Origin: Bacteroidales bacterium
Lineage (GTDB): Bacteria > Bacteroidota > Bacteroidia > Bacteroidales > B18-G4
Reading direction: 5' to 3'
Assembly (NCBI GenBank): GCA_036351275.1
Contig: JAZBOU010000178.1
Location: 1-57,654, forward strand
Length of the DNA: 57,654 nt
The position numbers were made by a program, and so were the translations under genes. This document shows, in pieces, positions 21,972-39,519 of this stretch (position 1 is the stretch's first letter; every line of letters starts with the position of its first letter). The notes below the pieces were generated by a model. That model was not told where the DNA came from, made no database searches, and saw only the letters and a list, made by a program, of their open reading frames with translations.

Positions 21972-22376
21972 TTAATTGTCAGGCGTTCCCTGATCTATCC
22001 ATGCTTTAATCTGGTTGATCGTACAATCAGAGAGCTTACTGCCGCCTTTTGGCATAGGCGAATTACCGGAGGCATGACTTATCGTTCCATACAGGCTTCC
22101 ATAATTACCCGCACCGATGGCTGCCGCTGTTGCAACATCGCTGTAGTTTTCCAGGCTGACATTTCCCGAAGGGGATGATCCGCTGTGACAGCCGGTGCAT
22201 GAGGCATTGATCACAGGCCATACATCACCGGCAAATGACATATTTTCTGTGGTACATTCTGCCGATGCCGGGTAGAGGGTTTCCTCATTATCGTAATAGC
22301 ATCCTGACATTGCCGTAGCTAATACCATAAGTATCAGTATTACAGTAAGTTTTTTCACTCTATTGTGGTGTTCCAT
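21972..22376 (-). CDS. Lipoprotein with one PSCyt1-like CxxCH domain
   Basis: 134 aa, lipobox AMSGC. FAGDVWPVINASCTGCHSGSSPSGNVSLENY...SPMPKGGSKLSDCTINQIKAWIDQGTP. Confidence 0.65.
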   Translation of the reverse strand: MEHHNRVKKLTVILILMVLATAMSGCYYDNEETLYPASAECTTENMSFAGDVWPVINASCTGCHSGSSPSGNVSLENYSDVATAAAIGAGNYGSLYGTISHASGNSPMPKGGSKLSDCTINQIKAWIDQGTPDN

Positions 22377-23334
22377 TGTTTATCCAGATTTGAAGTTGAA
22401 GGATCTTGCAATCCGATAGTTTTGCAGCATTCTTAGGCATGGGCGGGTATCCGGCTTCATGGTTCACCACTCCCATCAGACGCCCATCACTGGCAACCGC
22501 AGCAACATTATTGTATCCTTCCAGGCTCAGGCCGCCAAGCGGGTTGTTATCGTTGTGACAGCCAAGGCAATGTTTCTGAATAATGCCGCTCACCGGCGAG
22601 GTATACGTAATATTGGTCGTATCACAATCCTCATCGTCGCAAAACAGGTTTTGGGCACCCTGTGCGATCCAGGTGTACATAATGTCAATGTTTTCCTGGG
22701 GCCAGGGATCCAGCGGTGGCGGAGGCATGCGTTTGTCGGGATCGTCATCAATTACATTCTCATAGATATCCGATCCTGCAGGATCGAATGGCTTTACGTC
22801 GGCAGTTGCCATTACAGATGCGTAATCTGTTAAGCGAACACCATCCTGCATGCTAATGGCATCATGGCATCCGGGTTGCGCACATGAACTTTGCAAAAGG
22901 GGTAGCAGATCTCTTTCGAAATATACTGTATCGGGATCACAGGGATTCCCTGGTTCGGTGAATGTTGTATCATTCACCCATATGGTGATCTTACGAATAT
23001 TACAATCACTTAATTTATCCCCGTCTTTTGGCATGGGCGAATATCCGGGATCACGATTGATGGATCCCAGTAATTGCCCGCTCTGTGCAAGGAATGCAAC
23101 CGTTTCATAATCCGTTAGGTCGATCCCGCCTTCAGGTGCAGCACCGCTGTGGCAGAAAATACAATACTGGTCAAAAATGGGGTAAACATCTCCGTTATAC
23201 GTAACATTTAATGTATCACAGGGTTCAGGAGTGGGTGGAGTCGGACCGGCGATTTCCTCCGGCTCATGCTCGCATGACCAGGTTAAGTAAAAAACCAGGA
23301 ATGCCATGCTTGTGACAGCCAAAAGTCTTTTCAT
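22360..23334 (-). CDS. Lipoprotein with three PSCyt1-like domains (CIFCH, CAQPGCH, CLGCH)
   Basis: The ATG at 23334 gives MKRLLAVTSMAFLVFYLTWSC (lipobox). The track start at 23358 lies only 6 nt from the -7 box. Three about 100-aa repeats each end in ..LSDC.I..I..W...G. Confidence 0.65.
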   Translation of the reverse strand: MKRLLAVTSMAFLVFYLTWSCEHEPEEIAGPTPPTPEPCDTLNVTYNGDVYPIFDQYCIFCHSGAAPEGGIDLTDYETVAFLAQSGQLLGSINRDPGYSPMPKDGDKLSDCNIRKITIWVNDTTFTEPGNPCDPDTVYFERDLLPLLQSSCAQPGCHDAISMQDGVRLTDYASVMATADVKPFDPAGSDIYENVIDDDPDKRMPPPPLDPWPQENIDIMYTWIAQGAQNLFCDDEDCDTTNITYTSPVSGIIQKHCLGCHNDNNPLGGLSLEGYNNVAAVASDGRLMGVVNHEAGYPPMPKNAAKLSDCKILQLQIWINNGTPQ

Positions 23335-23363
23335 TTCATTTGACGTTATTTTAATCATACATT

Positions 23364-23371
23364 CAAATATA
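23364..23371 (-). promoter_or_regulatory. Bacteroidota -7 box (TATATTTG on minus strand)
   Basis: caaatata on the + strand, 30 nt upstream of the ATG at 23334. Confidence 0.45.
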
Positions 23372-23464
23372 ATATTTTACACTCTCTCAACCAACATATT
23401 TCGCTTATTTAGAAAAATCTCTAAAAACAATAGTGATATTATTGCGCTTTATAATAAAAGTATC

Positions 23465-23472
23465 TACATTTG
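23465..23472 (+). promoter_or_regulatory. Bacteroidota -7 box TACATTTG
   Basis: Matches TAnnTTTG, 20 nt upstream of the ATG at 23492. Confidence 0.45.
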
Positions 23473-23491
23473 TCGGATAACTATTTATACT

Positions 23492-24253
23492 ATGAAAGTA
23501 AAACACTTTATGTACCTGCTTACATTTCTTTTCATGACCGTTTTTGCATGGTCATGCGAAGACGATGCGCAAATCCCGGAAAACAAGGCAAAAAACCCTG
23601 TTATTGCAAATTCAATCAAAACCGACAGCCTTGCACCCTGTATCACCGAATGTCTGATGTCGCTTGAGTACCAGGAGATCAGTCCAGAAGAAGAGGCCCA
23701 CCTGATCATGATGCGGGAAGAGGAACTTATGGCTCAGGAGGTTTATGAGTATCTGTATTCACTATACAATATACCGGTTTTCAATAATATTTCCAGATCC
23801 GAGAATACCCATACGCTTACCGTTAAGGTTCTTCTTGACAAATATAACATACCAGACCCTGCTTTGGGTCACGAAGTGGGCGTATTCCACGACCAGGAAA
23901 TACAGGAACTATATAACAACCTGACATGGCAGGGAAGCCAGTCTTTTCTTGATGCCCTGATCGTTGGTATTACCATTGAAGACCTTGACATATACGACCT
24001 TGAAGTTTGTCTCGGAGATGTGGATAATACTGATATTGATCTGGTATTCACCAAGCTTTCCAAAGGGTCCCGAAATCATATGAGAGCATTCTACGGGCAT
24101 CTTGATAACCAGGGCTTTACATATACTCCCCAATACATCACACAGGCATATTTCGATGATATCGTCAATTCCCCCTGGGAGACGGGGAACGGCATATGTC
24201 AAAGCTGTCAGATGCTAAAAAGGGCCGAAGGGGACCCTGCCGGAATTAAATAA
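23492..24253 (+). CDS. Ferritin-like DUF2202 lipoprotein
   Basis: The internal ATG at 23492 gives MKVKHFMYLLTFLFMTVFAWSC. EEEAHLIMMREEELMAQEVYEYLY...SENTH is typical of DUF2202. Confidence 0.65.
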   Translation: MKVKHFMYLLTFLFMTVFAWSCEDDAQIPENKAKNPVIANSIKTDSLAPCITECLMSLEYQEISPEEEAHLIMMREEELMAQEVYEYLYSLYNIPVFNNISRSENTHTLTVKVLLDKYNIPDPALGHEVGVFHDQEIQELYNNLTWQGSQSFLDALIVGITIEDLDIYDLEVCLGDVDNTDIDLVFTKLSKGSRNHMRAFYGHLDNQGFTYTPQYITQAYFDDIVNSPWETGNGICQSCQMLKRAEGDPAGIK

Positions 24254-24314: not shown

Positions 24315-27300
24315 ATGATCAACCGAATTATTAACTTTTCGTTACAAAACAGGCTTATTATCGGCCTGCTCACCCTGGCCATGATTGCCTGGGGCATTTA
24401 TAATTTCACCATTCTTCCGATCGACGCTGTTCCTGACATTACCGACAACCAGGTGCAGGTGATCACGGTTTCGCCCTCGCTTGCTCCGCAGGAAGTGGAA
24501 CAGTTCATCACTTTTCCTGTTGAAATTGCCATGGCCAACATCCAGGATGTCAAGGAGATCAGGTCTATTTCCCGTTTTGGATTATCCGTGGTAACGATCG
24601 TCTTTAAAGACAGGCTTGACCCCTACCTTGCCCGCCAGCTCGTCAGTGAACAGATCAAGATCGCTGAAGGAGAGATACCGGAAGGGTATGGTAAACCGGA
24701 AATGATGCCCATAACCACCGGGCTGGGTGAAATATACCAGTACGTACTTGTCCCCGAACCCGGCTTTGAACATATGTACGATCCGATGACCATACGCACC
24801 ATACAGGACTGGATTGTAAAAAGACAGTTATCAGGCATTCCGGGTATCGTGGAAATCAGCAGCTTTGGCGGCTTTATCAAACAATATGAGGTGTCGATCC
24901 AGCCCAGAACCCTGATCGGCATGGATGTCAGTATCACGGAGATCTTCGATGCCCTGGAACAAAATAATCAGAATTCAGGCGGGAGCTATATTGAAAAAGG
25001 CCCGGATGTGTATTATATCCGTGCCGAAGGACTGGTAGAGGATATTGAGGACATTAAAAACATCGTGATCAAGAATATCGGGGGCAATCCCATACTCATA
25101 GGGGATGTTGCAGATGTGAGGATCGGAGCTCCTCCACGATTCGGTGCCATGACAAAAGATGGCAAGGGGGAAGCTGTGGGGGGGATCACCCTTATGCTGA
25201 AAGGGGCAAATTCCTCCGGGGTGATCAGCGACGTAAAAGAACGTATAGAGGCTGTTCAGAAAAGTCTGCCCAGGGGTTTGGAGATCCATCCTTATCTCGA
25301 CCGGTCCAAACTTATTTCCAAGACCATAAAAACGGTACGAAATAACCTGGTTGAGGGAGGCCTGATCGTGATCTTTGTGCTGATCCTCCTGCTAGGCAAC
25401 TACAGGGCGGGCCTGATCGTGGCTTCAGTAATTCCCTTATCCATGCTGTTTGCGTTCTCCATGATGAACCTTTTCGGCGTTTCGGCTAATCTTATGAGCT
25501 TAGGTGCCATCGATTTCGGATTGATCGTGGATGGTTCGGTTATTGTGGTGGAGGGGATCATATACCAGATCCATAAAAGTGGATTAAAAGGAAAGATATC
25601 GCGCAGCGAACTCGACCGTAATATCAGCATCGCCGGGCAACGGGTTAGCAAGTCAGCAGTATTTGGTGTCATCATCATCCTCATCGTGTATATTCCCATC
25701 CTGGCTTTCACGGGTATTGAAGGTAAGATGTTCAAGCCCATGGCACAAACAGTAAGTTTTGCCTTACTCGGGGCGCTGATCCTGTCTCTGACCTATGTGC
25801 CGGTTATGGCTTCCATTACACTGGGCAACGCAAGTTCACTTAAAACTACCTTTGCCGACCGCATTGTAGGTTTCCTTGAAAAATCACACCGTCCTGTACT
25901 GTTGTTTGCCCTTCGCCACAAGATGACATTTATGGCCATCGTTTTAGGGATACTGGCGATCAGCATCTGGAAATTCACCCGAATGGGTGGCGAATTCATA
26001 CCCACACTTGAAGAAGGCGATATTGCAGCCCAGATGACCCTGCAGCCCGGGTCCTCATTGAGTCAGAGCATTGCATCCAGTACCGAGGCCGAAAAAATAT
26101 TGCTTAAAAATTTCCCGGAAGTGGTGGAAGTGGTTTCCAAGATCGGAACTGCTGAAGTACCTACTGATCCCATGGCCGTAGAAGACGCCGACATTATGAT
26201 CGTCATGAAGCCCAAATCGGAATGGGTGAGTGCTAAAACCCGGGAGGAACTTACCGAAAAAATGAAAGAGGCATTGAGCGTGCTTCCGGGTATATCATTT
26301 GAGTTCACCCAGCCCATTCAACTGCGATTCAATGAGCTGATGACCGGAGTGAAATCGGATGTAGCTGTTAAGATCTATGGCGAAGACCTCGACCTCTTGT
26401 ATTCAAAGGCCACTGAGGCAGCATCTATCATTGAAGGCATCGAAGGTGCAGGCGATGTAAGGGTAGAGCAAATCGTGGGGCTGCCACAACTCGTGATCAA
26501 TTACAAAAGAGATAAGATAGCCCGCTATGGGCTGAACATTCACGAAGTAAACCGGATCATCCGAACAGCTTTTGCGGGTGAAACGGCCGGTATGGTATTT
26601 GAGGGGGAGAAGCGCTTCGACCTTGTGGTTCGATTGTGTGAAGAATGCCGAAGCAACCTGCAAAGCCTGAGCAACCTTCGCGTAAGCAATCCTTCCGAAG
26701 AGCTGATCCTGCTCAACCAGGTCGCCGACATCAGCATCAATGAAGGGCCCATGCAGATCAGCCGCGACAATACCAGCCGAAGGATCACAATAGGCATAAA
26801 TGTCAGGAACCGGGATGTTGAATCCTTCATATCCGAGGTCAATGAAAAGCTGGATACTCAATTTGAGCTGCCCGCCGGGTATTACCTGACCTACGGTGGT
26901 CAGTTTGAAAACCTGCAGGCCGCAAGGAGGAGTTCTTCCATTGCAGTTCCCATTTCATTGGTCGTTATATTGATACTCCTGTATTTTGCCTTTTATTCCC
27001 TGAAGCATGCCTTGATGATATTCACCGCAATTCCGCTTGCCGCAGTGGGGGGTATATGGGCCCTTGTCCTGAGAGGAATGCCTTTCAGTATCTCAGCCGG
27101 AGTGGGATTCATTGCCCTCTTTGGTGTTGCCGTGCTAAACGGAATTGTCTTGATCTCCTACTACAAACAATTAAAAAGTGAAGGCATGTCAGATATACTT
27201 GAGCGGGTGCTTACCGGTACCAGGACCAGGCTGAGGCCAGTCCTGATGACTGCTTCTGTTGCAGCCCTCGGATTTGTTCCCATGGCATTGTCTACAGCAG

Positions 27301-28652
27301 CAGGTGCTGAGGTTCAGAAGCCACTTGCAACAGTCGTTATAGGGGGCATTATTACTTCAACTTTCCTTACTCTGGTATTCCTGCCCCTCATATATATCAT
27401 GTTTGACGACGGGTTGAAAATAGGACGGATCCAAATTAACAAAGGCCTCATTATACTCCTGGCCATGTTGCCTTTTGCCGGAGGGTTGACGGCACAGGAG
27501 GAAGAAGCAGTTCGAAAGATCAAAATTGATGATGCGGTTAACATTGCACTGGAAAATAATTACCAGTTGGAAAATGCCAGGCTGGATATTGATAAGGCAA
27601 ACAAAATACGGAAGACAAGCTTTGACCTTCCTCCTCCTGAATTGTACCTTGAACTGGGACAGATCAATTCCAACCTGCACGATCGTTATTTCTCAGTTAG
27701 CCAGTCGTTCCGCTTTCCAACGATTTACACTTCACAGGGGAAACTGAACAGGGCCATGACAGATCTTGAAGAGGAAAAATTATCCATGACGAGAAGTGAG
27801 ATTGTGGCAAGCGTAATATCATTGTACAGCAACTGGCTGTTGTTCCATGAACAAATGAAGCTGGTGATCAGGATTGACAGCATATACCAGGATTTTCTTG
27901 AAGCAGCAGAATCCCGGTTTAACTCTGGCGACATCAATGCCCTTGAAATGGTCATGGCTGAATCAAAGGCAGCAGCCATTATGAATACTTACCAGCGCAT
28001 ACATACCGATATGGTTATCACTGAAAATGACCTCAAGGTAATGATGAATTCCAATGATAACTTTATGCCATCGGAAAACGAAATGATCCGGATGGAACTC
28101 AGTCTCCCGGGTGATTCTTTGAGCATTGTGGACAATCCATATGTTTCATACATCAGGCAATATTCTGCTGTGCAGGATGCCGTTGTAAAAAACGAAGGTT
28201 CACGCTACTTGCCCGATTTCAGTATCGGATACTTTAACCAGTCGATCGATAAAGTTGACGGATTTGACGGTATCCAGCTGGGCATGAGTTTCCCGATATG
28301 GTTCTGGAGCCATTCCGGGAAAGTAAAAGCTGCGCGTATTGAGCGTGATAAAGCTGAAAATCAACTCAACGCTGAGATAAGGCGCACCCGGCTTGAGCTG
28401 GAAAACCAGTTCAGGCAACTCGATAAATACTCCCTTGTGCTGGATTACTATGAAGAAAACGCCCTGCGACAGGCAAAACTTATCCTCAAACATTCGCTGA
28501 AAGCTTTTACCACCGGCAATATCAGCTATATCGAATATGCCAATGCCTCAGCCGATGCCTTTGATATAGAAATGGAATACCTTGAAGCAATTAACAATTT
28601 TAACCAAACCGTTATCAGGATCAATTACCTGATCGGCAGTTACCAGAATTAA
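24315..28652 (+). CDS. CusA/CzcA-family heavy-metal RND efflux pump fused to a TolC/CzcC-like outer-membrane factor
   Basis: 1445 aa. The first about 1040 aa are CzcA-like (12 TM helices, two large periplasmic loops). Residues about 1044-1060 form a signal-peptide-like hydrophobic segment ending LTAQ-EEE. The last about 385 aa have TolC-like coiled-coil/barrel repeats. Confidence 0.88.
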   Translation: MINRIINFSLQNRLIIGLLTLAMIAWGIYNFTILPIDAVPDITDNQVQVITVSPSLAPQEVEQFITFPVEIAMANIQDVKEIRSISRFGLSVVTIVFKDRLDPYLARQLVSEQIKIAEGEIPEGYGKPEMMPITTGLGEIYQYVLVPEPGFEHMYDPMTIRTIQDWIVKRQLSGIPGIVEISSFGGFIKQYEVSIQPRTLIGMDVSITEIFDALEQNNQNSGGSYIEKGPDVYYIRAEGLVEDIEDIKNIVIKNIGGNPILIGDVADVRIGAPPRFGAMTKDGKGEAVGGITLMLKGANSSGVISDVKERIEAVQKSLPRGLEIHPYLDRSKLISKTIKTVRNNLVEGGLIVIFVLILLLGNYRAGLIVASVIPLSMLFAFSMMNLFGVSANLMSLGAIDFGLIVDGSVIVVEGIIYQIHKSGLKGKISRSELDRNISIAGQRVSKSAVFGVIIILIVYIPILAFTGIEGKMFKPMAQTVSFALLGALILSLTYVPVMASITLGNASSLKTTFADRIVGFLEKSHRPVLLFALRHKMTFMAIVLGILAISIWKFTRMGGEFIPTLEEGDIAAQMTLQPGSSLSQSIASSTEAEKILLKNFPEVVEVVSKIGTAEVPTDPMAVEDADIMIVMKPKSEWVSAKTREELTEKMKEALSVLPGISFEFTQPIQLRFNELMTGVKSDVAVKIYGEDLDLLYSKATEAASIIEGIEGAGDVRVEQIVGLPQLVINYKRDKIARYGLNIHEVNRIIRTAFAGETAGMVFEGEKRFDLVVRLCEECRSNLQSLSNLRVSNPSEELILLNQVADISINEGPMQISRDNTSRRITIGINVRNRDVESFISEVNEKLDTQFELPAGYYLTYGGQFENLQAARRSSSIAVPISLVVILILLYFAFYSLKHALMIFTAIPLAAVGGIWALVLRGMPFSISAGVGFIALFGVAVLNGIVLISYYKQLKSEGMSDILERVLTGTRTRLRPVLMTASVAALGFVPMALSTAAGAEVQKPLATVVIGGIITSTFLTLVFLPLIYIMFDDGLKIGRIQINKGLIILLAMLPFAGGLTAQEEEAVRKIKIDDAVNIALENNYQLENARLDIDKANKIRKTSFDLPPPELYLELGQINSNLHDRYFSVSQSFRFPTIYTSQGKLNRAMTDLEEEKLSMTRSEIVASVISLYSNWLLFHEQMKLVIRIDSIYQDFLEAAESRFNSGDINALEMVMAESKAAAIMNTYQRIHTDMVITENDLKVMMNSNDNFMPSENEMIRMELSLPGDSLSIVDNPYVSYIRQYSAVQDAVVKNEGSRYLPDFSIGYFNQSIDKVDGFDGIQLGMSFPIWFWSHSGKVKAARIERDKAENQLNAEIRRTRLELENQFRQLDKYSLVLDYYEENALRQAKLILKHSLKAFTTGNISYIEYANASADAFDIEMEYLEAINNFNQTVIRINYLIGSYQN

Positions 28653-28663
28653 TCCTAATCACC

Positions 28664-29830
28664 ATGAATTCCAAGTTATACTTATTCTTATTTTTCCCTC
28701 TAACGCTGCTCCTGGCCTGCAACAGCAACCAGCCGGAAAATGATAATACTTATGAGCAGGCACCGGCCGCATCAGGAGGCGTTTTCCTTACTGCCGACCA
28801 GGTTAAATACGCAGGCATCGAATACGGATCGATCAGCAGTAAAAAGCTGTCGAGTGATGTAAATGCCCGGGGTGAACTTGTGTTACCGGTAAATGCAATT
28901 GCCGACCTGGTATGCCAGTATACCGGCCAGATAAAGGCTGTCATGGTCAAAGAGGGGGATAAGGTTAAGCGCGGACAGCTGGTGGCTACCCTGAATTCGC
29001 CCGAATTTATCAATGCGCAACAACGCTATTCAATGGTCAAGAATGAACTGGTGATGCTGCAGCAGGAATATGAACGGCAGAAAGAATTGAATAAGGATAA
29101 GGTGTCTTCCGACAAGTATTTCCAGAAAGCAGAAGCCGAATATAATGTTGCACTGGCTGAGCTCAAAGGACTCGGACTGCAGCTAAAAATGGCAGGAGTA
29201 GACCTGGCACTGCTGGAAAATGGGCACATCTCAGCTGAGCTAAAGATCATCTCCCCTCTTGAAGGATATGTCGAAAATATCGTTGTCAACCCCGGAAAAT
29301 TTGTCATGCAGGATGAACGTCTGATGCAGGTGATCAACAGGGAGGAATTGCTTATTGAACTCAGTGTTTTTGAAAAAGATATCATGAAGATCAAACCCGG
29401 GCAGAGTGTTAGCTTCAGCCTTTCAAACCTGAATGATGTTCGGCATGAAGCAACGGTTATTTCGATAGGAAATATTGTTCAGAAAGACAGCCGGATTGTG
29501 AAAGTACTGGCAGAATTCCGTAATCATAATACCGAGATGCTCCCGGGCATGTTTGTTGCATCGGAGATCCATACGGGTGAAATGGAAATCCGGGCTTTGC
29601 CCGACGAGGCCCTTGTCAGAACAGAGGGTGATAAGTGGTTTATCTACTATACTACCAAAGAGTGGCAGGAAGAAAAGGGTACCCTGTTCCGCAGCGTTCC
29701 TGTTGAAACAGGCCTGGCTCAGAGCGGGTATTCTGAGGTCAAACTGCAAGAAGCACTTCCTGACGATGCCATGATCGTTGTCAGCGGAGCTTATTTTTTA
29801 AAGACCGAACAGGCGAAGCAAGCAGAATAA
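28664..29830 (+). CDS. RND efflux periplasmic adaptor (membrane fusion protein, CzcB-like)
   Basis: 388 aa, lipobox LLLAC, with biotinyl-lipoyl-like, hairpin and beta-barrel segments typical of HlyD/CzcB. Confidence 0.9.
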   Translation: MNSKLYLFLFFPLTLLLACNSNQPENDNTYEQAPAASGGVFLTADQVKYAGIEYGSISSKKLSSDVNARGELVLPVNAIADLVCQYTGQIKAVMVKEGDKVKRGQLVATLNSPEFINAQQRYSMVKNELVMLQQEYERQKELNKDKVSSDKYFQKAEAEYNVALAELKGLGLQLKMAGVDLALLENGHISAELKIISPLEGYVENIVVNPGKFVMQDERLMQVINREELLIELSVFEKDIMKIKPGQSVSFSLSNLNDVRHEATVISIGNIVQKDSRIVKVLAEFRNHNTEMLPGMFVASEIHTGEMEIRALPDEALVRTEGDKWFIYYTTKEWQEEKGTLFRSVPVETGLAQSGYSEVKLQEALPDDAMIVVSGAYFLKTEQAKQAE

Positions 29831-30949: not shown

Positions 30950-31201
30950 ATGAAAATCAGGAAAAATATTGCAATCAGTGATTCCGGTTTCATCTTCAAT
31001 CCGGATACAGGCGAATCCTTCACTGCCAATCCAGTCGGGCTGGAAGTATTGGGTATGCTAAAGGAAGACCTTGATTTTGAAGCGATCAGAAAAAAATTGC
31101 TTTCCAGGTACAATTCTGATAAGGACACTGTGGAGAAAGACTTTTACGATTTCATTGGCATGCTTCACCAGTTTAAACTGATTGAAAAGGATGAAGGATA
31201 A
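30950..31201 (+). CDS. PqqD-family protein (RiPP-recognition-element fold)
   Basis: 83 aa. IAISDSGFIFNPDTGESFTANPVGLEVLGMLKEDLDFEAIRKKLLSRYNSDKDTVEKDFYDFIGMLHQFKLIE follows the PqqD pattern. The 3' end overlaps the ATP-grasp start by 11 nt. Confidence 0.75.
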   Translation: MKIRKNIAISDSGFIFNPDTGESFTANPVGLEVLGMLKEDLDFEAIRKKLLSRYNSDKDTVEKDFYDFIGMLHQFKLIEKDEG

Positions 31202-32237
31202 GAAAGTAACAATAGCGGTAACTGGACTCAATGCGATCGACAGCCCGGGCCCGGGCATTTCTGTGATCAGGGGGTTGAAAGAGGCCAAAGCTTTTGATGC
31301 ACGGATCATCGGGCTATCATATGAAACACTTGAGCCGGGTTTGTATATGCATGACCTGATCGATAAGAGTTATCAGATCCCTTATCCCTCGGCCGGAACA
31401 TCAATCCTGCTCGAACGCATCAAATATATCCACAGCAAGGAACAGCTTGATGTGATCATCCCCAACTTCGACGCGGAACTGATGCCTTTTATGAAACTCA
31501 GCCAGGAATTGAATAGGCTGGGTATAAAAACATTCCTTCCTGATGAAAAAATATACACGGAACGAGAAAAGTTCAACCTGCCGGAATTCGGGAAGAAGTA
31601 TGGTTTTCATGTCCCCGACAGTGAAGCTGTGTTTGATGTTGGCAAATTGCAAAAAGTTATGCGCGATTATGATTTCCCACTTGTCATCAAGGGAAAGTTC
31701 TACGATGCTGGTATCGCCCACAACACGGAGCAGGCCATCAGCCTCTACCATAAGATCAGTGCGAAGTGGGGCCTGCCCATAATCGTACAGGAATTCATCA
31801 AAGGCACCGAATTTAATGTTACCGGCCTTGGCGACGGAAAAGGGAATACGATTTCGGCCGTTCCCATGCGCAAACAATATATCACCGACAAGGGGAAAGC
31901 CTGGGGGGGCATCAGCATATCCGATAAGAAAATACTGGACCTCACCAACAAATTCCTTTCCTCCACGAAGTGGAAAGGTGGCTTTGAGCTGGAGCTCATG
32001 AAAAATGAGGACGGGGAGTTTTATATCCTCGAGATCAATCCGCGAATCCCGGCCTGGGTATATCTTGCAGTCGGTGTAGGACAGAACATACCCGAAGCAC
32101 TTGTTAAACTTGCGCTTGGCATGGACACTGAACCCTTTACGGATTACGCGGTCGGGAAGATGTTTATCCGCTATTCCTGGGATATGATCGTCGACCTGGA
32201 AGAATTTCAGCAAATATCAACATTTGGAGAACTATAA
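31191..32237 (+). CDS. ATP-grasp family carboxylate-amine ligase
   Basis: 348 aa from the ATG at 31191; the track start at 31182 is TTG. It has a pre-ATP-grasp domain, FPLVIKGKF, IIVQEFIKGTEFNV and FYILEINPRIPAW motifs. Confidence 0.8.
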   Translation: MKDKKVTIAVTGLNAIDSPGPGISVIRGLKEAKAFDARIIGLSYETLEPGLYMHDLIDKSYQIPYPSAGTSILLERIKYIHSKEQLDVIIPNFDAELMPFMKLSQELNRLGIKTFLPDEKIYTEREKFNLPEFGKKYGFHVPDSEAVFDVGKLQKVMRDYDFPLVIKGKFYDAGIAHNTEQAISLYHKISAKWGLPIIVQEFIKGTEFNVTGLGDGKGNTISAVPMRKQYITDKGKAWGGISISDKKILDLTNKFLSSTKWKGGFELELMKNEDGEFYILEINPRIPAWVYLAVGVGQNIPEALVKLALGMDTEPFTDYAVGKMFIRYSWDMIVDLEEFQQISTFGEL

Positions 32238-32286
32238 TACCGGTGAAGGGTACTGGGTACCGGGTACCGGGAAACAATAAAATATT

Positions 32287-33645
32287 ATGGAAAAGTTACG
32301 ATATGAAAGGCCGGTGATCAGGAAGCTGGAATCGGCTATGCCCAATAAATTTGGTTCAAGAACAGAGTTTACGCCAACTACTGATATTGATGGAGTCCCG
32401 GTAAAAAATCTTCTTGATGAATACGGTTCCCCCCTCTTTGTGATTTCGGAGAGAACCATCAGGAGCACTTATGAGAAAGCCCGGAAGGCGTTCACCAGCA
32501 GGTATCCCAGGGTACAGTTTGCCTGGTCGTACAAGACAAACTACCTCGATGCGATTTGCAATGTGTTCCACCAGGAAGGATCCTGGGCAGAAGTGGTATC
32601 GGGTTTTGAGTATGAAAAAGCCATTAGAAATGGGGTTCCCGGGAAAAAGATCATCTTTAACGGGCCGGACAAAACTGAAGATGAGCTGCGTAAAGCTATC
32701 ATGAACAACTCCCTGATACACATTGACCATCTCGATGAGCTTTATACCATCATTGAACTTGCCGATGAACTTAAGCTGAAACCCAAGGTAGCCATCAGGG
32801 TTAACATGGATACCGGCGTATATCCCATGTGGGACCGTTTCGGCTTCAATTACGAAAACGGGCAGGCATGGGATGCACTCAACAAGATCATGCGTTCGGA
32901 TAAACTCGAACTCCTGGGATTACATACACATATCGGCACCTTTATGCTTACCGCCCAGGCTTATGGCACTGCAGCCTATAAGCTGGCCGACCTGGCACTG
33001 GGTATACAAAAAAAGTACAATCACAAAATAAAATATATTGATATGGGAGGAGGTTTTGCCTCCAGGAACACCCTGAAGGGTGCCTACCTGCCGGGTTCCG
33101 ATACCAATCCCGACTTTGACGATTATGCCGAAGCGATCACCTCTGCACTTATCAATGCTGATTTTGGCCCGGATGAACTTCCGCTGCTGATCCTGGAAAC
33201 GGGCCGCGCACTGATCGATGATGCCGGGTACCTTCTTGGAACGGTTATATCGAACAAGCGGCTTGCCGATGGTCGCCGAAACACGATTATCGATGTGGGC
33301 GTTAATATCCTTTTTACCTCATTCTGGTATGAGCATAAGGTAAGCCCTGCGCAGGAATTTACACAATATGTTGAAGATACGGTATTATACGGGCCCCTGT
33401 GCATGAACATTGATGTGATCCGGGAGAGTATCAGCCTGCCCCTTATGAACAAGGGGGAGCACTTTGTCATACACTCCGTGGGTGCCTACAATATGACGCA
33501 ATGGATGCAATTTATTACCTTGCGTCCTAAAGTGGTGATGATCGATACCAAAGGAAAGGTACACCTTGTGCGTGAGCGGGAATCGATCGATAGCATCACG
33601 TCACTCGAAAGAGTGCCGGAATATTTGAAAACCTTCAAATTATAA
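32287..33645 (+). CDS. Type-III PLP-dependent decarboxylase (Orn/DAP/Arg decarboxylase family)
   Basis: 452 aa. FAWSYKTNYL (PLP-Lys), HIGT, IDMGGGF and ETGRALI motifs, plus a C-terminal beta-domain. Confidence 0.85.
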   Translation: MEKLRYERPVIRKLESAMPNKFGSRTEFTPTTDIDGVPVKNLLDEYGSPLFVISERTIRSTYEKARKAFTSRYPRVQFAWSYKTNYLDAICNVFHQEGSWAEVVSGFEYEKAIRNGVPGKKIIFNGPDKTEDELRKAIMNNSLIHIDHLDELYTIIELADELKLKPKVAIRVNMDTGVYPMWDRFGFNYENGQAWDALNKIMRSDKLELLGLHTHIGTFMLTAQAYGTAAYKLADLALGIQKKYNHKIKYIDMGGGFASRNTLKGAYLPGSDTNPDFDDYAEAITSALINADFGPDELPLLILETGRALIDDAGYLLGTVISNKRLADGRRNTIIDVGVNILFTSFWYEHKVSPAQEFTQYVEDTVLYGPLCMNIDVIRESISLPLMNKGEHFVIHSVGAYNMTQWMQFITLRPKVVMIDTKGKVHLVRERESIDSITSLERVPEYLKTFKL

Positions 33646-33654: not shown

Positions 33655-34041
33655 ATGAGCTATTATATCACAAAGATCACAGAGGGAAATTTTAATGAAA
33701 CACTTGAAAAAGTGACCGAAGCCCTGAAAGATGTTGGTTTTGGTGTGATCACCGAGGTTAACATGAAAGAAAAACTGAAAGAAAAACTGGATGTCGACTT
33801 CAAGCAATATGTCATCCTGGGAGCCTGCAACCCCGGCTTTGCATATGAAGCCGTGCAGATGGAAGAAGAGCTGGGTGTCTTGCTGCCATGTAACGTGGTA
33901 GTGATCGACAAGGAAGACGGAAGGGTACAGGTATCAGCCATCGATGCAGCAAAAATGATGTCGGTTGTCGGAAATCCTGAACTGGACAAAATAGCTAAGA
34001 CTGTAAATGAACGTCTGGGGCAGGCTCTAAATAATTTATGA
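33655..34041 (+). CDS. DUF302 domain protein
   Basis: 128 aa. FGVITEVNMKEKLKEKLDVDFKQYVILGACNP is typical of DUF302. Confidence 0.75.
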   Translation: MSYYITKITEGNFNETLEKVTEALKDVGFGVITEVNMKEKLKEKLDVDFKQYVILGACNPGFAYEAVQMEEELGVLLPCNVVVIDKEDGRVQVSAIDAAKMMSVVGNPELDKIAKTVNERLGQALNNL

Positions 34042-34084: not shown

Positions 34085-36289
34085 ATGAATCCATATAAGG
34101 CATATGTAAATCCCTTCCTGGATAGTGTGACCAATAGCTATTCGCAGGTATTTTTTTCGAAAAGCAGGGTTTTTGCTTTTATCATTGTCATCGTAAGTTT
34201 TTTTGATTTTTATGCAGGCCTTGCAGGCCTGATCGCAGTCCTGATCTCGAATCTGGCGGCTTACGCCATTGGATTTAACAGGCATAATATCCGGAGTGGT
34301 TTCTATGGTTTCAACAGCCTGCTTGTTGCACTGGGCATTGGAATGTACTATGAATTTACAGGGTCCTTCCTGCTGGTACTGCTATTTGCATCGCTCTTTA
34401 CCCTTCTGGTCAGCGTGATGCTGGAGGGTGTGATCGGCAAATATGGTCTTCCGTACCTCAGCATTCCTTTCCTGCTGGGCATATGGATGGTACTCCTCGC
34501 TGCGCGCGAATACACGTCATTAGAAATCAGCGAGCGCGGTGTTTATTCCCTGAACGAAATATATGCACTCGGCGGGAAGTGGCTGGTTGATGCGCATGAA
34601 TGGCTGTACAGCCTTCCCTTGCCTGAAATCATCACAATATATTTCCGCTCGCTGGGTGCCATATTTTTCCAGTACCATCTGCTCCCCGGGATTTTGATCG
34701 CCCTTGGGGTGGTGATCTGGTCGCGACAGGCATTCCTCCTTTCACTGGTCGGATTTGTGTCGGCCTGGATATTTTATTTCATCATCGGTGCGGATATCAA
34801 CACCCTGAGCTACACCTATATTGGCTTTAACTTTATCCTGACATCCATTGCCATCGGAGGGTTTTTTATCATCCCCTCCAAATGGTCATACCTCTGGGTC
34901 ATCCTCCTCACCCCTCTTACAGCTTTCCTGATCACCAGCACGAGCAGCATGTTCCTTTCATCACAACTTTCAATATACTCCCTGCCCTTTAACCTGGTGG
35001 TACTTACTTTCCTGTACATCCTGAAATTCCGTGAAAAAAATACGGGCAAGCCTGAACCGGTAAGCATTCAGCACTTTTCCCCTGAACTGAACTTTTATAT
35101 AAAAGATACTTACCGCAAACGCTTTGATGAAAATGTTCTTGTTAACCTTTGCCTGCCCTTCTTCGGGGAGTGGACGGTGACCCAGGCTCATAACGGGGAG
35201 CATACGCATAAGAATGCATGGAAACATGCATGGGATTTTGAGATCAGCGATAAAGAGGGCTTTTTTCACTCCGGAGAAGGGTCCAGGACTGAGGACTACT
35301 ATTGCTTTAATAAGCCGGTGACGGCGCCTGCCGATGGCTGGGTGGAAGAGATCCTTGACGGTGTGGACGACAACATGCCCGGCGAAGTAAACCTGGAACA
35401 GAACTGGGGGAACACCATTGTGATCCGCCATCATGACAAACTGTTTTCCAAGCTCAGCCACCTGAAGAACGGCTCATTCAGGGTAGAAAAAGGCGATTAT
35501 GTTAAACGTGGAGATGTGCTGGCCCTTTGCGGCAACTCCGGCAGGTCGCCGAAACCTCACCTGCATTTCCAGCTACAATCCGATCCCTTCATCGGAACAC
35601 CTACGCTCGACTATCCCATTGCATTTTATATACAGGGTGGTGACAGCTACCGCCTGATGACCTATTCCCGGCCGGCAGAAAAGGACCGGGTCTCCAATAT
35701 TGAAAAGGACGAAAGCCTGAACAAAGCACTTCATTTCGTTCCCGGCAGAAAACTTACATTCAGCATATTGAGCAATGGGGAAAAGAAATCCTCCACAACC
35801 CTTACGGTCAAAGCTGATGCCTTCAACAACACCTATATCGAGGATGCCGAAAGCAAGTCGAAAGCATGGTTCATTTCAGAGGCCGGCATGACCTATTTTT
35901 TACATTTTGAAGGAAACAAAACTTCTTTCCTGTATTTACTCTTTCTCGGACTTTACAGAAATGTTGCAGGATTTTACAAGGGACTCGACATAAGGGATGA
36001 TTTTACGTTGAGCATTATCAGCAGCAAGAGCAGGATGATCCTGCAGGACTTCCTGGCCCCCTTCTATACCTATCTGCGTGCTGAATACCAGATGGAGTAT
36101 GTGAGCATGGACGACGAGATAAACGGAAACAGTATTGAACTGCATGCAATTGCCAGGGAACGTGCAGGAAAACACATCCGGAAACAGTATGAATTCCGGT
36201 TCAACATAGAAAACGGTAACCTGGCTAAAATATACATCAGTGCACCCGGCGCAAACATAGAAGCTACATGGGAAAAATCGGAATTCTGA
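34085..36289 (+). CDS. Urea-transporter-like polytopic membrane domain fused to M23 metallopeptidase domain plus C-terminal unknown domain
   Basis: 734 aa. N-terminal about 330 aa with about 10 TM helices and SYSQVFFS (UT-family-like). Central M23 signature HKNAWKHAWDF...GNSGRSPKPHLHFQL. About 220 aa uncharacterised C-terminus. Confidence 0.72.
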   Translation: MNPYKAYVNPFLDSVTNSYSQVFFSKSRVFAFIIVIVSFFDFYAGLAGLIAVLISNLAAYAIGFNRHNIRSGFYGFNSLLVALGIGMYYEFTGSFLLVLLFASLFTLLVSVMLEGVIGKYGLPYLSIPFLLGIWMVLLAAREYTSLEISERGVYSLNEIYALGGKWLVDAHEWLYSLPLPEIITIYFRSLGAIFFQYHLLPGILIALGVVIWSRQAFLLSLVGFVSAWIFYFIIGADINTLSYTYIGFNFILTSIAIGGFFIIPSKWSYLWVILLTPLTAFLITSTSSMFLSSQLSIYSLPFNLVVLTFLYILKFREKNTGKPEPVSIQHFSPELNFYIKDTYRKRFDENVLVNLCLPFFGEWTVTQAHNGEHTHKNAWKHAWDFEISDKEGFFHSGEGSRTEDYYCFNKPVTAPADGWVEEILDGVDDNMPGEVNLEQNWGNTIVIRHHDKLFSKLSHLKNGSFRVEKGDYVKRGDVLALCGNSGRSPKPHLHFQLQSDPFIGTPTLDYPIAFYIQGGDSYRLMTYSRPAEKDRVSNIEKDESLNKALHFVPGRKLTFSILSNGEKKSSTTLTVKADAFNNTYIEDAESKSKAWFISEAGMTYFLHFEGNKTSFLYLLFLGLYRNVAGFYKGLDIRDDFTLSIISSKSRMILQDFLAPFYTYLRAEYQMEYVSMDDEINGNSIELHAIARERAGKHIRKQYEFRFNIENGNLAKIYISAPGANIEATWEKSEF

Positions 36290-37731
36290 CCGTATTGTTA
36301 TATTGCTGCTCCGTAACCCTTTTCTCGCAGCAGGAATACGATTTCCGCCAGGTCGATTCCATAACATATAATGCCTATCTGACAGCGGATTGGGATAAGG
36401 TACTAAGCACCGGGAAAAAAGCTGTAAAAGGCGGTATCGATTATTACTATCTCCGTCAAAGAATGGGAATAGCCTATTTCAGTAAACAAAATTACAGGGC
36501 TGCCTCCAGGCAGTTCGAGGCCGCAGCAAAGCATGACCCGGGCAACGAGATCACCCAAAATTTACTCTATTACTCTTTGCTGAATTCCGGGCAGTTTCCG
36601 GAAGCTTTTTACACCACGGGGTCCCTGAATGAAAATATGAGGAAACTAAGCAATATTCCAAAACCGGGATTTGTCACATCACTGGATCTTGAAACCGGTC
36701 CGGAATTCAGCAACAACTTTGACGAAAATGCATTGGGGAAACTCCCTTCCGGGCAGGATCTGCAATACCAGGACCTGTATGGGAACAGCTACTATTCTAA
36801 CCTGGGGATCGCTTTTCAACTATTGCCGCGGGTAAGCTTATATGCTGCCTACTCAAACGTCATCATCGAAAAGAAGACCATGATGCAATATGCCTTGAAT
36901 CGTCCCGATTCCATTGTTGAGCAAGAATGGGGATTCTCAAAATACTTCCCGGCAAGACCAAAGATAGAAAGCAGTGAATACCAGTACCGCCTGTGCCAGA
37001 ACAGCGCCTATTTACGATCAAACATTTACCTGGGCAACGGATGGTCGATTGTACCTTCCGCACATTATACTCAATTTAACACAAAAAAAGTTGTCGTTCA
37101 AGATCATTCGAAGATCGTACAGGATACAGCCTATTACATTGCTTCGATCGACTCTGTTTCATATTTCCAGTATTACGATGTCGATCTCCAACTGGCAGCT
37201 GAAGATTTCAGCGATGACCTCTTTGTGATATTCCTGGGGTTCAGCAAAAGGGTATTGTATTTTGACCTTGGCGTGTTTGGATCATGGTCAAATTTGTATG
37301 GCAGATCGCAATATCAATACGGGATCAACCTTGGCTATTATCCCCTGGGAAACCTCCGGTTTTATGGAAATACAAATATAAAAGGCTTTACAGAAGAAAA
37401 CGATACCCGTTTCATTTTCAGCCAGTTGGTCGCAGGGAGACTCACAGGGTTCTTATGGGCTGAAGCGTTTGGAACATTCGGGAACCTGAAGGGGACAAAC
37501 GAATCGGATGCATTCCTCGTTTATAATATTACAGATGACATTGACCTGAAAACCGGGCTGAACCTTATCTTTGTGCTAAGCCCGGCTGTTAAGCTTTCGC
37601 TGACATACCAGTACCTGCAAAAAACCGGTTTCCGGTATACATACGGGCCGGGAAACAAAACGGGTGAAAAAATACAGGAAGTTGAATATATTAACCAGAG
37701 TATCATAGGAGGATTAAAATGGACTTTTTAA
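36268..37731 (+). CDS. Putative outer-membrane protein: N-terminal TPR-like region plus beta-barrel
   Basis: 487 aa, signal peptide MGKIGILTVLLYCCSVTLFSQQ. TPR-like helices in the first about 110 aa, then amphipathic beta-strands, with a terminal ...GGLKWTF (C-terminal Phe). Overlaps the upstream gene by 22 nt. Confidence 0.5.
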   Translation: MGKIGILTVLLYCCSVTLFSQQEYDFRQVDSITYNAYLTADWDKVLSTGKKAVKGGIDYYYLRQRMGIAYFSKQNYRAASRQFEAAAKHDPGNEITQNLLYYSLLNSGQFPEAFYTTGSLNENMRKLSNIPKPGFVTSLDLETGPEFSNNFDENALGKLPSGQDLQYQDLYGNSYYSNLGIAFQLLPRVSLYAAYSNVIIEKKTMMQYALNRPDSIVEQEWGFSKYFPARPKIESSEYQYRLCQNSAYLRSNIYLGNGWSIVPSAHYTQFNTKKVVVQDHSKIVQDTAYYIASIDSVSYFQYYDVDLQLAAEDFSDDLFVIFLGFSKRVLYFDLGVFGSWSNLYGRSQYQYGINLGYYPLGNLRFYGNTNIKGFTEENDTRFIFSQLVAGRLTGFLWAEAFGTFGNLKGTNESDAFLVYNITDDIDLKTGLNLIFVLSPAVKLSLTYQYLQKTGFRYTYGPGNKTGEKIQEVEYINQSIIGGLKWTF

Positions 37732-38339
37732 AAAAAATCGCTCTTTTCGGCATGGTGTTGACCATAGGTGCCATGTTACATGCCCAGGAGCCTGAAGCGA
37801 TTATCCGGGCTTTTAAGGATAGCTATATACATGAAGCTGATTCGAATTATACCTTAGCAATACAGGATTTAAAAAATATTTATGATCCGGCATCCTATCA
37901 TATCAATGCACGCCTGGGCTACCTTTCTTACCTTGCTGGTCTGCTGCCTGAATCGGTAGCATATTACCAGAAAGCCATAGTATTGAGGCCATACGCCATA
38001 GAAGCCCGGTTCGGTCTTACCTACCCTGCCTCCACTATGGGCAACTGGGCACAGGTCAAGGATCAGTACATCAAAATACTGGAAGTGGACCCGCAAAACA
38101 CAAAGGCGCATTATTACATTGGTCTCATGGAGTATAATGCTGCAAATTATGACCTTGCGGCCATGCATTTTGAAAAGGTTGTGAACCTCTACCCCTTTGA
38201 TTCAGAAACCTTATTAATGTATGCCTGGACCAATTACCGGATGGGAAAGACCAGGGAAGCCAGCGTATTGTTTAATGAAGTTTTGCTGATCGCTCCTTAT
38301 AACGAGTCGGCATTGGAGGGACTGGAATTGATAAAATGA
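37719..38339 (+). CDS. TPR-repeat protein (secreted)
   Basis: 206 aa with a signal peptide and 4-5 TPR units (AYYQKAIVLRPY..., YIKILEVDPQNTKAHYYIG...). Overlaps the upstream gene by 13 nt. Confidence 0.7.
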   Translation: MDFLKKIALFGMVLTIGAMLHAQEPEAIIRAFKDSYIHEADSNYTLAIQDLKNIYDPASYHINARLGYLSYLAGLLPESVAYYQKAIVLRPYAIEARFGLTYPASTMGNWAQVKDQYIKILEVDPQNTKAHYYIGLMEYNAANYDLAAMHFEKVVNLYPFDSETLLMYAWTNYRMGKTREASVLFNEVLLIAPYNESALEGLELIK

Positions 38340-38668
38340 AAGAGCAAGACGAAAAGATTATTTTAAATGAGCTCATCCATAAAGATCTGCAGTTAAACGA
38401 TGATGAGGCGCTCATCAGAGATGAGCATATTGATCTGAGCACCTTGCATGAGAAACTTTCACTCCTGGTGGCTTATCTGCTCGAGAACGATATGCATCGT
38501 TTGCTCAATGCCATGTATCGTCTTGATGTGAGCGAGATCAAATTCCATGAGGCCATGAATAGCGCCACTAAGCAGGAGGCCGCCATCCGTATCGCCGACC
38601 TGATCATCGAAAGGGAAATGCAAAAAGTTAAAACACGCCTTCATTACCGGAAGCACCGGAAATTTTAA
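38336..38668 (+). CDS. Hypothetical small helical protein
   Basis: 110 aa. ATGA start/stop overlap with the TPR gene. No recognisable motif. Confidence 0.45.
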
Positions 38669-38697: not shown

Positions 38698-39519
38698 ATG
38701 GGCGATTTTAGCTGGAGCGAGATCTTATTTGCCTTCGGGCTAACCATGTTTGCTGGACTGTCAACCGGAATTGGCAGCCTCCTGGCCTTTTTCACGAAAC
38801 GCACAAATACCAGGTTTCTCTCCCTGGCCCTGGGGTTTTCGGCCGGGGTGATGATCTATGTTTCTTTTATCGAGATCTTCCCAAAAGCGCTGGAGGAACT
38901 ATCCGCATTCAGCGGTGAAAGGAATGGATACTGGCTTACCACAGCAGCTTTTTTTGCAGGGATATTGCTTATTGCCGTGATCGATAAGCTTATACCCTCC
39001 TTCGAGAACCCTCATGAGATCAAGATGGTGGAAGATGTGAGCAAGGACAAGCTTGAATCCGGTAAAACCAAATTAATGCGCATGGGGCTTTTTACGGCCC
39101 TGGCCATTGCTATCCATAATTTCCCGGAAGGACTGGCAACCTTCATTGCTGCCCTGGAAGACCCGGGTCTTGGTATTGCGATTGCCGTAGCCATCGCCAT
39201 TCACAATATCCCGGAGGGCATTGCCGTATCCGTACCTATTTATTATGCAACCGGCAATAAACGGAAAGCATTCTGGTATTCCTTTTCATCAGGGCTGGCA
39301 GAACCGGTTGGGGCAACGATCGGATTTCTGATCCTGATGCCTTTTCTGAGTCCGCTGATGTTCGGACTGATCTTTTCCGGTGTAGCAGGCATCATGGTGT
39401 TCATCTCTATTGATGAATTGCTCCCGGCCGCGCAGGAATTCGGAGAACATCACCTTTCCATATATGGCCTTATTGCGGGAATGATTGTGATGGCGCTCAG
39501 TTTATTAATGTTTGCTTAA
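38698..39519 (+). CDS. zupT: ZIP-family zinc transporter ZupT
   Basis: 273 aa. Duplicated [12 protein letters not shown] / [13 protein letters not shown] metal-site helices and ZupT-like length. Confidence 0.9.

Follow-up and report, generated by a model that had tools for sequence, protein, structure and literature searches.

A PqqD-like protein, an ATP-grasp ligase and a FigC-like decarboxylase are the cytoplasmic half of a widespread six-gene operon

Introduction

What does a RiPP recognition element (RRE; RiPP, ribosomally synthesised, post-translationally modified peptide) serve when no precursor peptide is encoded beside it? This question is raised by a 57,654-nucleotide (nt) stretch of DNA from a Bacteroidales bacterium (contig JAZBOU010000178.1 of assembly GCA_036351275.1; this whole stretch is referred to here as the window), in which the genes for a small protein of the PqqD fold, which is the fold of RREs, an ATP-grasp ligase and a pyridoxal phosphate (PLP)-dependent decarboxylase follow each other on one strand. 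A sequence-only reading of the window, made before any database search, had described these genes as a cassette with no visible precursor and had proposed that an amino acid is ligated and decarboxylated on a peptide or protein scaffold. Our analyses place the three genes within a conserved operon of six, whose other members encode a channel fused to a peptidase and two envelope proteins, and they lead us to propose, tentatively, that this operon encodes a pathway of ligation, decarboxylation and release, which the RRE would assemble at a membrane channel.

A conserved six-gene operon

Synteny was examined in relatives of the ligase from 80 genomes of different species, belonging to the Bacteroidales, Marinilabiliales, Prolixibacteraceae/Draconibacterium and Lentimicrobiaceae and including metagenome-assembled genomes labelled Chlorobiota. 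The six genes of the operon, with their coordinates in the window, sizes in amino acids (aa) and occurrence in these loci, are as follows.

30950-31201, forward strand: PqqD-fold (RRE-type) small protein, 83 aa, PF05402 match; present in 80 of 80 loci
31191-32237, forward strand: ATP-grasp ligase, 348 aa, PF15632/PF02655 and PRK12767-type models; present in 80 of 80 loci
32287-33645, forward strand: alanine-racemase-fold PLP decarboxylase, FigC-like, 452 aa, PF02784 and PF00278; present in 73 of 80 loci
34085-36289, forward strand: urea transporter (UT)-type channel with M23 and beta-rich domains, 734 aa, PF03253 (1e-57) and PF01551 (9e-16); present in 67 of 80 loci
36268-37731, forward strand: protein with a signal peptide, N-terminal tetratricopeptide repeats (TPR) and a probable outer-membrane beta-barrel, 487 aa, overlapping the end of the channel gene; present in 60 of 80 loci
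37719-38339, forward strand: periplasmic TPR protein with a signal peptide, 206 aa, TPR_1/TPR_2 (4e-11); present in 59 of 80 loci

The order of the six genes is constant among the loci and the absences lie mostly at contig ends; the decarboxylase is missing from seven loci, six of them cut at contig ends and one (L050) representing a genuine absence. The gene for the PqqD-like protein adjoins that for the ligase in all 80 loci, and the adjacency of the PqqD, ATP-grasp and decarboxylase genes is not due to chance. The synteny of these three genes, on which the sequence-only reading depended, is thereby borne out in relatives, but its treatment of them as a whole cassette is not, for three further conserved genes downstream (34085-38339), encoding the channel and the envelope proteins, bring the unit to six. 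The core trio makes up the cytoplasmic half of this operon and is not a complete unit. The three open reading frames (ORFs) of that reading are present on the forward strand with the coordinates that it gave them, its fold and family calls agree with the profile matches listed above, and its gaps of 49 nt (ATP-grasp to decarboxylase) and 9 nt (after the decarboxylase) are correct. The 11-nt overlap between the first two genes is likewise reproduced, with the ligase starting at the ATG at 31191 and the stop codon of the PqqD gene at 31199-31201. The translational coupling proposed from this overlap is also upheld across the loci, where the median intergenic gaps along the six genes are -5, 66, 41, 52 and 14 nt, the first value being that between the PqqD and ATP-grasp genes.

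The match of the PqqD-like protein to PF05402 (E value 6e-10; 39.7 bits, with the cutoff at 23.4) extends over positions 4-67 of the 67 in the profile, and its top NCBIfam match is the lasso-peptide PqqD chaperone family NF033530, at a score under the cutoff. Its conserved core reads ISxSGFxFNPxTGESFxxNPxGxE...EKDxxDF, and conservation across orthologues is strong in this core, which includes the strands and helix by which RREs shape their peptide groove. The mechanically called ORF of the ligase opens at a TTG at 31182; the start at the ATG at 31191, which gives MKDKKVTIAVTG, yields a protein of 348 aa and matches the length of close homologues (348-349 aa), from which it appears to be the proper one. 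The ligase matches PF15632 (1e-10), PF02655 (1e-6) and the PRK12767 "CPSase-like" models (4e-25), and Foldseek comparison of its AlphaFold2 (AF2) model (predicted local distance difference test score, pLDDT, 89) retrieves 2pn1 (CPSase-like, function unknown) as the best match, followed by biotin carboxylases, L-amino-acid ligases and PurD.

One additional gene interrupts the operon in the window:

33655-34041, forward strand: DUF302 protein, 128 aa, PF03625 (6e-23), a lineage-specific insert between the decarboxylase and channel genes

This gene is found in the operon in only four of the 80 loci, the window's four closest relatives, and it stands outside the conserved unit. An AraC-type regulator is the immediate upstream neighbour in 26 of 69 loci by Pfam scan and is encoded anywhere in the locus in 38 of 82 by tblastn, and no pattern was seen across the loci among the genes downstream of the operon. 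None of the six operon proteins matched an anti-phage defence profile of PADLOC (0 matches), no Rfam family was found in the cassette region, and promoter and terminator scans of the region were uninformative.

The operon is represented by thousands of sequences, and 160 species genomes were recovered with near-exact peptide patterns alone. The sequence-only reading had been unable to place the trio in a described pathway, and full-text searches of the library used here similarly gave no description of the combination of PqqD-like protein, ATP-grasp ligase, decarboxylase and channel. The operon is thus both widespread and undescribed, while its component families are known and its chemistry is precedented by FigA/FigC and BtrJ/BtrK; what is new is that an RRE occurs in combination with a cytoplasmic amidase fused to a UT channel and with TPR proteins of the envelope.

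The decarboxylase and its active site

The decarboxylase matches PF02784 (5e-30) and PF00278 (8e-11), and its relatives of solved structure are FigC/FslC (7kh2, 4e-58), the diaminopimelate (DAP) decarboxylase of M. jannaschii (1e-40) and BtrK (1e-21). The parallel that had been drawn with decarboxylases acting on conjugates, BtrK among them, is therefore a sound one, with FigC as the closest relative. The catalytic Lys is retained, and the loop that bears the catalytic Cys reads C-M-N-I-D as in FigC, with Met following the Cys. In DAP, Orn and Arg decarboxylases this next residue is acidic and binds the free side-chain amine, whereas in FigC it is Met (PMC7857480). The position of Arg343 of the M. 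jannaschii enzyme, a residue that in DAP decarboxylase binds the distal carboxylate (PMC7857480), is occupied by Thr. Thr327 and Tyr331 of the FigC specificity helix are retained, whereas Ile and Gln, respectively, stand in place of His357 and Arg387, with which FigC binds citrate. All of the distant variants described below share the CM(N/Q)(I/V)D loop and the aromatic specificity helix. These residues suggest that the enzyme is designed to take an amino acid already conjugated through its side chain, to a partner other than citrate, and that it is FigC-like in its workings yet outside the FslC/FigC family (236 bits against the cutoff of 500 for NF041039).

The opposite view, viz. that the enzyme is a housekeeping LysA in a coincidental neighbourhood, draws on the fact that the lysA model TIGR01048 is its second-best NCBIfam match (5e-66). 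The score of this match (222.9 bits) is under the curated cutoff of 297.9, neither the Arg that binds DAP nor the acidic residue following the Cys is retained, the synteny with the PqqD and ATP-grasp genes is fixed, and fusions with the ligase exist. The active-site residues and the sub-cutoff scores together indicate that the enzyme is not LysA, and we give this explanation virtually no credence.

Absence of a precursor gene and a candidate ligand of the RRE

The absence of a precursor ORF, which had been noted for the window, is confirmed in 81 loci and several distant variants. When all ORFs of 12-90 aa lying upstream of, downstream of and in the gaps within the cassette were clustered by BLASTP, the 81 loci yielded no conserved short ORF in these near-cassette regions, peptides shorter than 12 aa or encoded at a distance being outside the scope of the search, and the only clusters obtained were shadows of the neighbouring AraC gene and of the tail of the channel gene. 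An alignment of the six closest loci displayed no coding-like conservation in their upstream DNA, and the gene calls in distant variants included no precursor gene. Membership in a RiPP biosynthetic gene cluster was considered and rejected, as no conserved ORF of 12 aa or more that could be a precursor gene was found in the cluster.

A precursor encoded elsewhere in the genome is the first alternative that these results bring into view. Under this extension of the original scaffold proposal, the RRE would present a scaffold peptide, the ligase would add an amino acid to it, the decarboxylase would edit the residue thus added, and the M23 domain, or the sirtuin that takes its place in variants, would release the product as in a RiPP-like pathway. 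Characterised RREs all bind peptide substrates, the M23 and sirtuin domains fused to the channel target peptides or proteins, and the PqqD/ATP-grasp pairs that stand alone by housekeeping genes (see below) imply a target located elsewhere, in the manner of RimK acting on S6; tiny precursors can also escape notice, an example being the 21/22-mer FzmZ. Against these points, no conserved short ORF was found in the 81 loci or in five distant variants, the intergenic gaps of the window are too small, and RRE pathways normally keep the precursor beside the RRE gene. The conservation among orthologues (65-95% identity for the ligase and 46-74% for the RRE) is, in addition, unusually high for a RiPP cluster. 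We consider a precursor encoded in trans to be possible, although on the doubtful side.

The PqqD-like protein had itself been suggested as a carrier in view of its acidic C-terminal tail, which the ATP-grasp ligase would load as LysX loads LysW, and the gene for a small acidic-tailed protein is indeed coupled here to that of an ATP-grasp enzyme, an arrangement known from LysW and LysX. Orthologues differ in the length and sequence of the tail, which can end in G, A, E, D, V, I, N, K or S; L074 has no tail, and in a natural fusion of the PqqD-like protein to the ligase (P0323) the tail forms an internal linker, so that no free C-terminus is available. Its purine-rich codons overlap the start region of the ligase gene, and the ligase scores 23.5 bits against the cutoff of 143.4 for TIGR00768 (rimK_fam), which places it outside the RimK/LysX family. 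As the tail is variable, missing in one locus and internal in another, we reject the LysW-like reading, the probability of which we judge to be very small.

A candidate ligand is instead provided by the decarboxylase, which carries an N-terminal extension of 35 residues (the alignment with FigC begins only at residue 36 of the query) that is conserved as strongly as the active site. This extension contains the following motif.

32302-32319, forward strand: Y6-E-R-P9-x-I11 in the N-terminal extension of the decarboxylase; present in 72 of 72 orthologues

In distant variants the motif takes the forms YQPPLI, YVRPSI, YEKPVI and YERPAI. Discrete RREs of the lasso type bind a leader motif [Y/W]xxPx[L/V/I/F/A] (PMC13381572; also PMC13622209). 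YERPxI matches this published motif in sequence, and it is a candidate ligand for the PqqD-like protein.

The channel fusion and the envelope proteins

The fourth gene of the operon encodes a protein of 734 aa in which a channel (residues 13-313) is followed by an M23 domain (about residues 360-500) and a beta-rich domain (about residues 530-734). The PF03253 match (195.5 bits) covers positions 2-291 of the 292 in the profile and hence the whole 10-helix domain. In the AF2 model (pLDDT 84.5), the UT part matches dvUT (3k3f; Foldseek E value 6e-12, TM-score 0.72-0.80 on the target) and human UT-B, while the M23 part matches ShyA, DipM and EnpA; a Foldseek run against viral structures returned M23 matches only. 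The motif LPxxTxPF is the signature of the urea transporter family, and the two pore motifs of the channel read LPYLSIPF and LSIYSLPF, Ser occupying the Thr position in both. The M23 domain scores 58.3 bits against the PF01551 cutoff of 28.7, and its residues H381, D384, H459, H492 and H494 are conserved, with PHLHF (HxH) and the middle His kept. The C-terminal beta-rich domain, of about 200 residues, had no match in Pfam, in a PDB profile search or in the Foldseek search with the whole model. The UT-M23 architecture has been mentioned in passing, without a function (PMC12998343, 2026).

Charge counts over 61 sequences place both termini of the channel inside (N-in/C-in), the central loop being acidic and five Lys/Arg directly following the last helix, and the sirtuin and GNAT domains that occupy the M23 position in variants need cytoplasmic cofactors. 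On these two grounds the M23 domain is predicted to be cytoplasmic, a location that is unusual for the M23 family and that does not make this protein an extracytoplasmic hydrolase.

The two following genes encode envelope proteins. The 487-aa protein has TPR matches, weak matches to OMP_b-brl, BBP2 and autotransporter families in a few orthologues, and the C-terminus ...GGLKWTF, from which its C-terminal part is probably an outer-membrane barrel. Synthase-dependent exopolymer export (of the PgaA, BcsC and AlgK/E type) was tried as an explanation of the TPR domain and probable barrel and was rejected, a glycosyltransferase being absent from the operon.

The operon unites an M23 endopeptidase with a DAP-decarboxylase-like enzyme and an ATP-grasp ligase, and this could also point to peptidoglycan, for instance to the ligation and decarboxylation of a diamino acid on a stem-peptide carboxylate or to the editing of meso-DAP peptides in the cytoplasm. 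The genes mreD-pbp2-rodA lie directly before the operon in about 19-21 loci, and rodA alone directly precedes the PqqD gene in L080; this adjacency may reflect inherited gene order or may be a hint of a cell-wall role. The loci in question belong largely to one clade and the other flanks vary, the M23 domain is predicted to be cytoplasmic, the decarboxylase is without the DAP-binding residues, and a sirtuin replaces the M23 domain in other phyla. A role in peptidoglycan modification or recycling is accordingly considered improbable. In the clade with this arrangement (L081, 5476-9673, is an example), the cassette, together with its AraC-type regulator, comes directly after mreD-pbp2-rodA.

Fusions and distant variants

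A search of 1.84 billion representative proteins recovered 237 clusters (50% identity) of the ligase family at E <= 1e-30. Among the fusions found are that of the PqqD-like protein with the ATP-grasp ligase (P0323, 477 aa), that of the ligase with the decarboxylase (P0284, 871 aa), and numerous tandem double ligases of 710 aa (e.g., P0242 and relatives). The gene contexts of variants with a ligase identity of 33-40% echo the core of the operon, three of them (L084, L088 and L094) doing so at 33-37%.

L084: TPR protein, PqqD/ligase fusion, degenerate second ligase, decarboxylase, UT+sirtuin+GNAT fusion
L088: TPR protein, PqqD, double ligase, decarboxylase, UT+sirtuin fusion
L094: PqqD, ligase, decarboxylase, UT; the contig is cut inside the UT gene, so that the fusion partner is unseen
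L085-87: PqqD, then ligase/decarboxylase fusion; TPR, TonB_C and HEAT proteins upstream

The two UT-sirtuin fusions (L084, 7233-9344; L088, 13544-15217) come directly after the decarboxylase, and the catalytic motifs of their sirtuin domains are complete. The UT pore signature of L084 is degenerate (LPVLGIPF).

Other members of the ligase family occur in reduced settings. A signal-peptide TPR protein adjoins the PqqD/ligase pair in L050; L095 comprises a PqqD-like protein, an ATP-grasp ligase and a degenerate second one, together with a TPR protein and a giant beta-helix-like protein, and lacks both decarboxylase and channel; the pair of L098/99 stands alone beside housekeeping genes; and the ligase of L097 is solitary. 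Signal-peptide TPR proteins flank the PqqD/ATP-grasp genes in L084, L088, L095 and L050. The pairs of L050, L095 and L098/99 indicate that the minimal old module consists of the PqqD-like protein and the ligase, often with an extracytoplasmic TPR protein; added to this module are the decarboxylase and the channel fusion, which keep together. The giant protein of L095 (12348-20111), which follows the ligase set, is a secreted protein of 2587 aa, rich in Gly, Thr, Asn and Ser, with beta-helix-like "GGGIYC...SSP.I..N" repeats. In L091/L092 (7442-14474), an ATP-grasp paralogue of 40% identity occurs without PqqD or decarboxylase, flanked by an MBOAT acyltransferase and LB_356 protein and by an M1 peptidase within a sugar-modification cluster, which suggests that the ligase family has there been put to a different use.

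A proposed pathway and its alternatives

The reading that we prefer, and hold tentatively, is that the operon encodes a pathway of ligation, decarboxylation and release that the RRE assembles at the membrane channel; its chemical steps, the binding of the motif by the RRE and the direction of transport are what we infer from the features above. In this pathway, the PqqD-like RRE, translationally coupled to the ligase, would tether the ligase and the decarboxylase to each other by means of YERPxI, making a separate precursor unnecessary. The ligase would couple an amino acid by its side chain to the carboxylate or amine of a partner, and the FigC-like decarboxylase would strip the alpha-carboxyl from the conjugated amino acid, as FigC, SbnH and BtrK do. 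The cytoplasmic M23 domain, or the sirtuin in other phyla, would then cleave the resulting amide at the inner mouth of the channel, and a small product would exit through the UT-type channel toward the two TPR proteins, one periplasmic and the other with the probable outer-membrane barrel. The amide cleaved by M23 DD-endopeptidases (MepM/ShyA) is on the epsilon-amino group of DAP, and that cleaved by sirtuins is on the epsilon-amino group of lysine. That both kinds of domain cut side-chain amides would fit the omega-N-acylated product expected from a FigC-type decarboxylase.

Several observations count against this pathway. The structure matches of the ligase are generic and its PDB sequence matches weak, with no close characterised relative found, and they do not point to particular substrates. 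The RRE-binding motif is not rare, the same regular expression also matching inside folded domains of the decarboxylase (YGSPLF), the ligase (WGLPII) and the channel (YGLPYL). The first zinc motif of the M23 domain is H-A-W-D, i.e., HxxD instead of HxxxD. UT pores have a narrow bore and are selective for solutes that are small and neutral, for which reason a charged amine would be an unusual cargo. No channel follows the fused enzyme in L085, and the pairs of L050, L095 and L098/99 have neither a decarboxylase nor a channel nearby; where the decarboxylase is lacking, the RRE, at least in those loci, has another ligand.

A simpler pathway for a free small molecule, of the siderophore, osmolyte or polyamine type and comparable to PvsA/PvsE or FigA/FigC, would leave the PqqD-like protein with only a structural role, as a subunit of the ligase, and would have the channel export the product. 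The decarboxylase does belong to the FigC/SbnH/AcsE/BtrK clade, fusions of ligase and decarboxylase occur, an exporter-like channel and an outer-membrane protein are part of the operon, and metal-related genes flank it, viz. those for a resistance-nodulation-division (RND) pump and a ZIP transporter in the window and a Metal_resist gene in L008. However, Ile and Gln take the places of H357 and R387, the two residues by which FigC binds citrate, the operon is without an NRPS-independent siderophore (NIS) synthetase or a TonB-dependent receptor, and such a pathway leaves unexplained the peptidase or sirtuin fused to the channel and the conserved groove residues of the RRE. The metal-related neighbours are not conserved among the loci, and a metal theme for the neighbourhood was rejected on this account. 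We regard a plain small-molecule pathway as unlikely.

On the question whether ligation and decarboxylation take place on a peptide or protein scaffold, as was proposed from the sequence, the RRE and the channel-fused M23 and sirtuin amidases favour a scaffold. A particular form of this idea would be a self-scaffolded system, in which the N-terminal peptide of the decarboxylase (YERPxI...NKFG) is at once the ligand of the RRE and the carrier that the ATP-grasp ligase loads with an amino-acid adduct; the decarboxylase would edit the adduct at its own N-terminus, and the M23 domain, or the sirtuin in other phyla, would cut it off into the pore. This we think rather improbable. The alternatives to the tethered pathway are ranked with the precursor encoded in trans first, the plain small-molecule pathway second and the role in peptidoglycan third.

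Comparison with known systems

The FigA/FigC (FslA/FslC) rhizoferrin, SbnH, AcsE and PvsA/PvsE systems resemble the proposed pathway in that side-chain ligation, which is placed first in the proposal, is followed by alpha-decarboxylation by a PLP enzyme of the alanine-racemase fold. In comparison with FigA/FigC, the operon of the window has an ATP-grasp enzyme instead of an NIS synthetase, has no siderophore receptor or major facilitator superfamily (MFS) exporter, and adds the RRE, the UT-channel/peptidase fusion and the TPR proteins. In the butirosin system BtrI/BtrJ/BtrK, a protein of about 85 aa bears the amino acid on which an ATP-grasp ligase and a DAP-decarboxylase-like enzyme work and a deprotecting enzyme acts later, which is the same logic of ligation, decarboxylation and release. 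BtrI is a phosphopantetheinyl carrier, whereas the small protein of the window has the RRE fold and no conserved attachment site; as no PP-binding (carrier) domain was found by Pfam among the operon proteins or in the variants, the counterpart of BtrI is missing.

With RRE pathways (lasso B1, PqqD/PqqA, MftB/MftA and the fosfazinomycin scaffold) the operon has in common a PF05402 RRE coupled or fused to a modifying enzyme and a [Y/W]xxPx[L/V/I] motif. It differs from them in the lack of a precursor, the only conserved segment that bears the motif being the N-terminus of an enzyme, and in that a PRK12767-type ATP-grasp ligase, a PLP decarboxylase and a UT fusion are not a known set of RiPP tailoring enzymes. 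The coupling of a small-protein gene to an ATP-grasp gene and the possible ligation to a protein carboxylate recall LysW/LysX and RimK/S6, but unlike LysW/LysX there is no conserved C-terminal acceptor, the fold is another one and the ligase falls outside that family. The peptidase-containing ABC (ATP-binding cassette) exporters of the C39 type are alike in architecture only, a cytoplasmic peptidase being fused to a membrane conduit; by analogy, this suggests that cleavage is coupled to export. The conduit of the window is of the UT type and without an ATPase, and the peptidase is M23, with a sirtuin in variants.

Other features of the window

Upstream of the operon, 24315-28652 (forward strand) encodes a protein of 1445 aa that joins a complete RND pump (ACR_tran, 5e-274, residues 5-1030) to a C-terminal OEP/TolC-like domain, and it is followed by a gene for a CusB/HlyD-type adaptor at 28664-29830 (forward strand). 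A pump and an outer-membrane factor in a single chain are unusual; the same fusion is found in L003 (79% identity) and partly in L078. At 22360-24253, a divergent gene pair encodes a 332-aa CxxCH-repeat haem protein (PSCyt1 and Cytochrome_CBB3 matches) and a DUF2202 protein, and a gene for a haem CxxCH cytochrome recurs near the cassette, on either side, in six loci. Downstream, 38336-38668 (forward strand) encodes a protein of 110 aa that has no family match and whose gene overlaps the stop of the 206-aa TPR gene by 4 nt. This protein goes with the ZIP zinc transporter (38698-39519, forward strand) and not with the cassette, the two being 7-8 kb from the cassette in L054, and it looks like a partner of ZIP. 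The sole Rfam match in the 57.6 kb is a tRNA gene at 57581-57653 (forward strand).

Significance

Genome mining based on RREs would call these loci RiPP clusters although the precursor is absent, and the operon could reveal a role of the RRE that needs no precursor, with a motif on a partner enzyme as the candidate ligand. The clade of "conjugate" decarboxylases formed by FigC, SbnH and BtrK gains a very common branch with an ATP-grasp partner, and a genomic context is gained for the enzyme-fused urea-transporter domain and for a predicted cytoplasmic M23 domain. If the self-scaffolded form were true, the RRE would have been recruited outside RiPP biosynthesis, the cytoplasmic M23 domain and the UT channel would together serve for release and export, and the existence of thousands of "precursor-less RRE clusters" would be explained. 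The product or modification made by this operon would be a common trait of the Bacteroidota of sediments and wastewater and of several other phyla.

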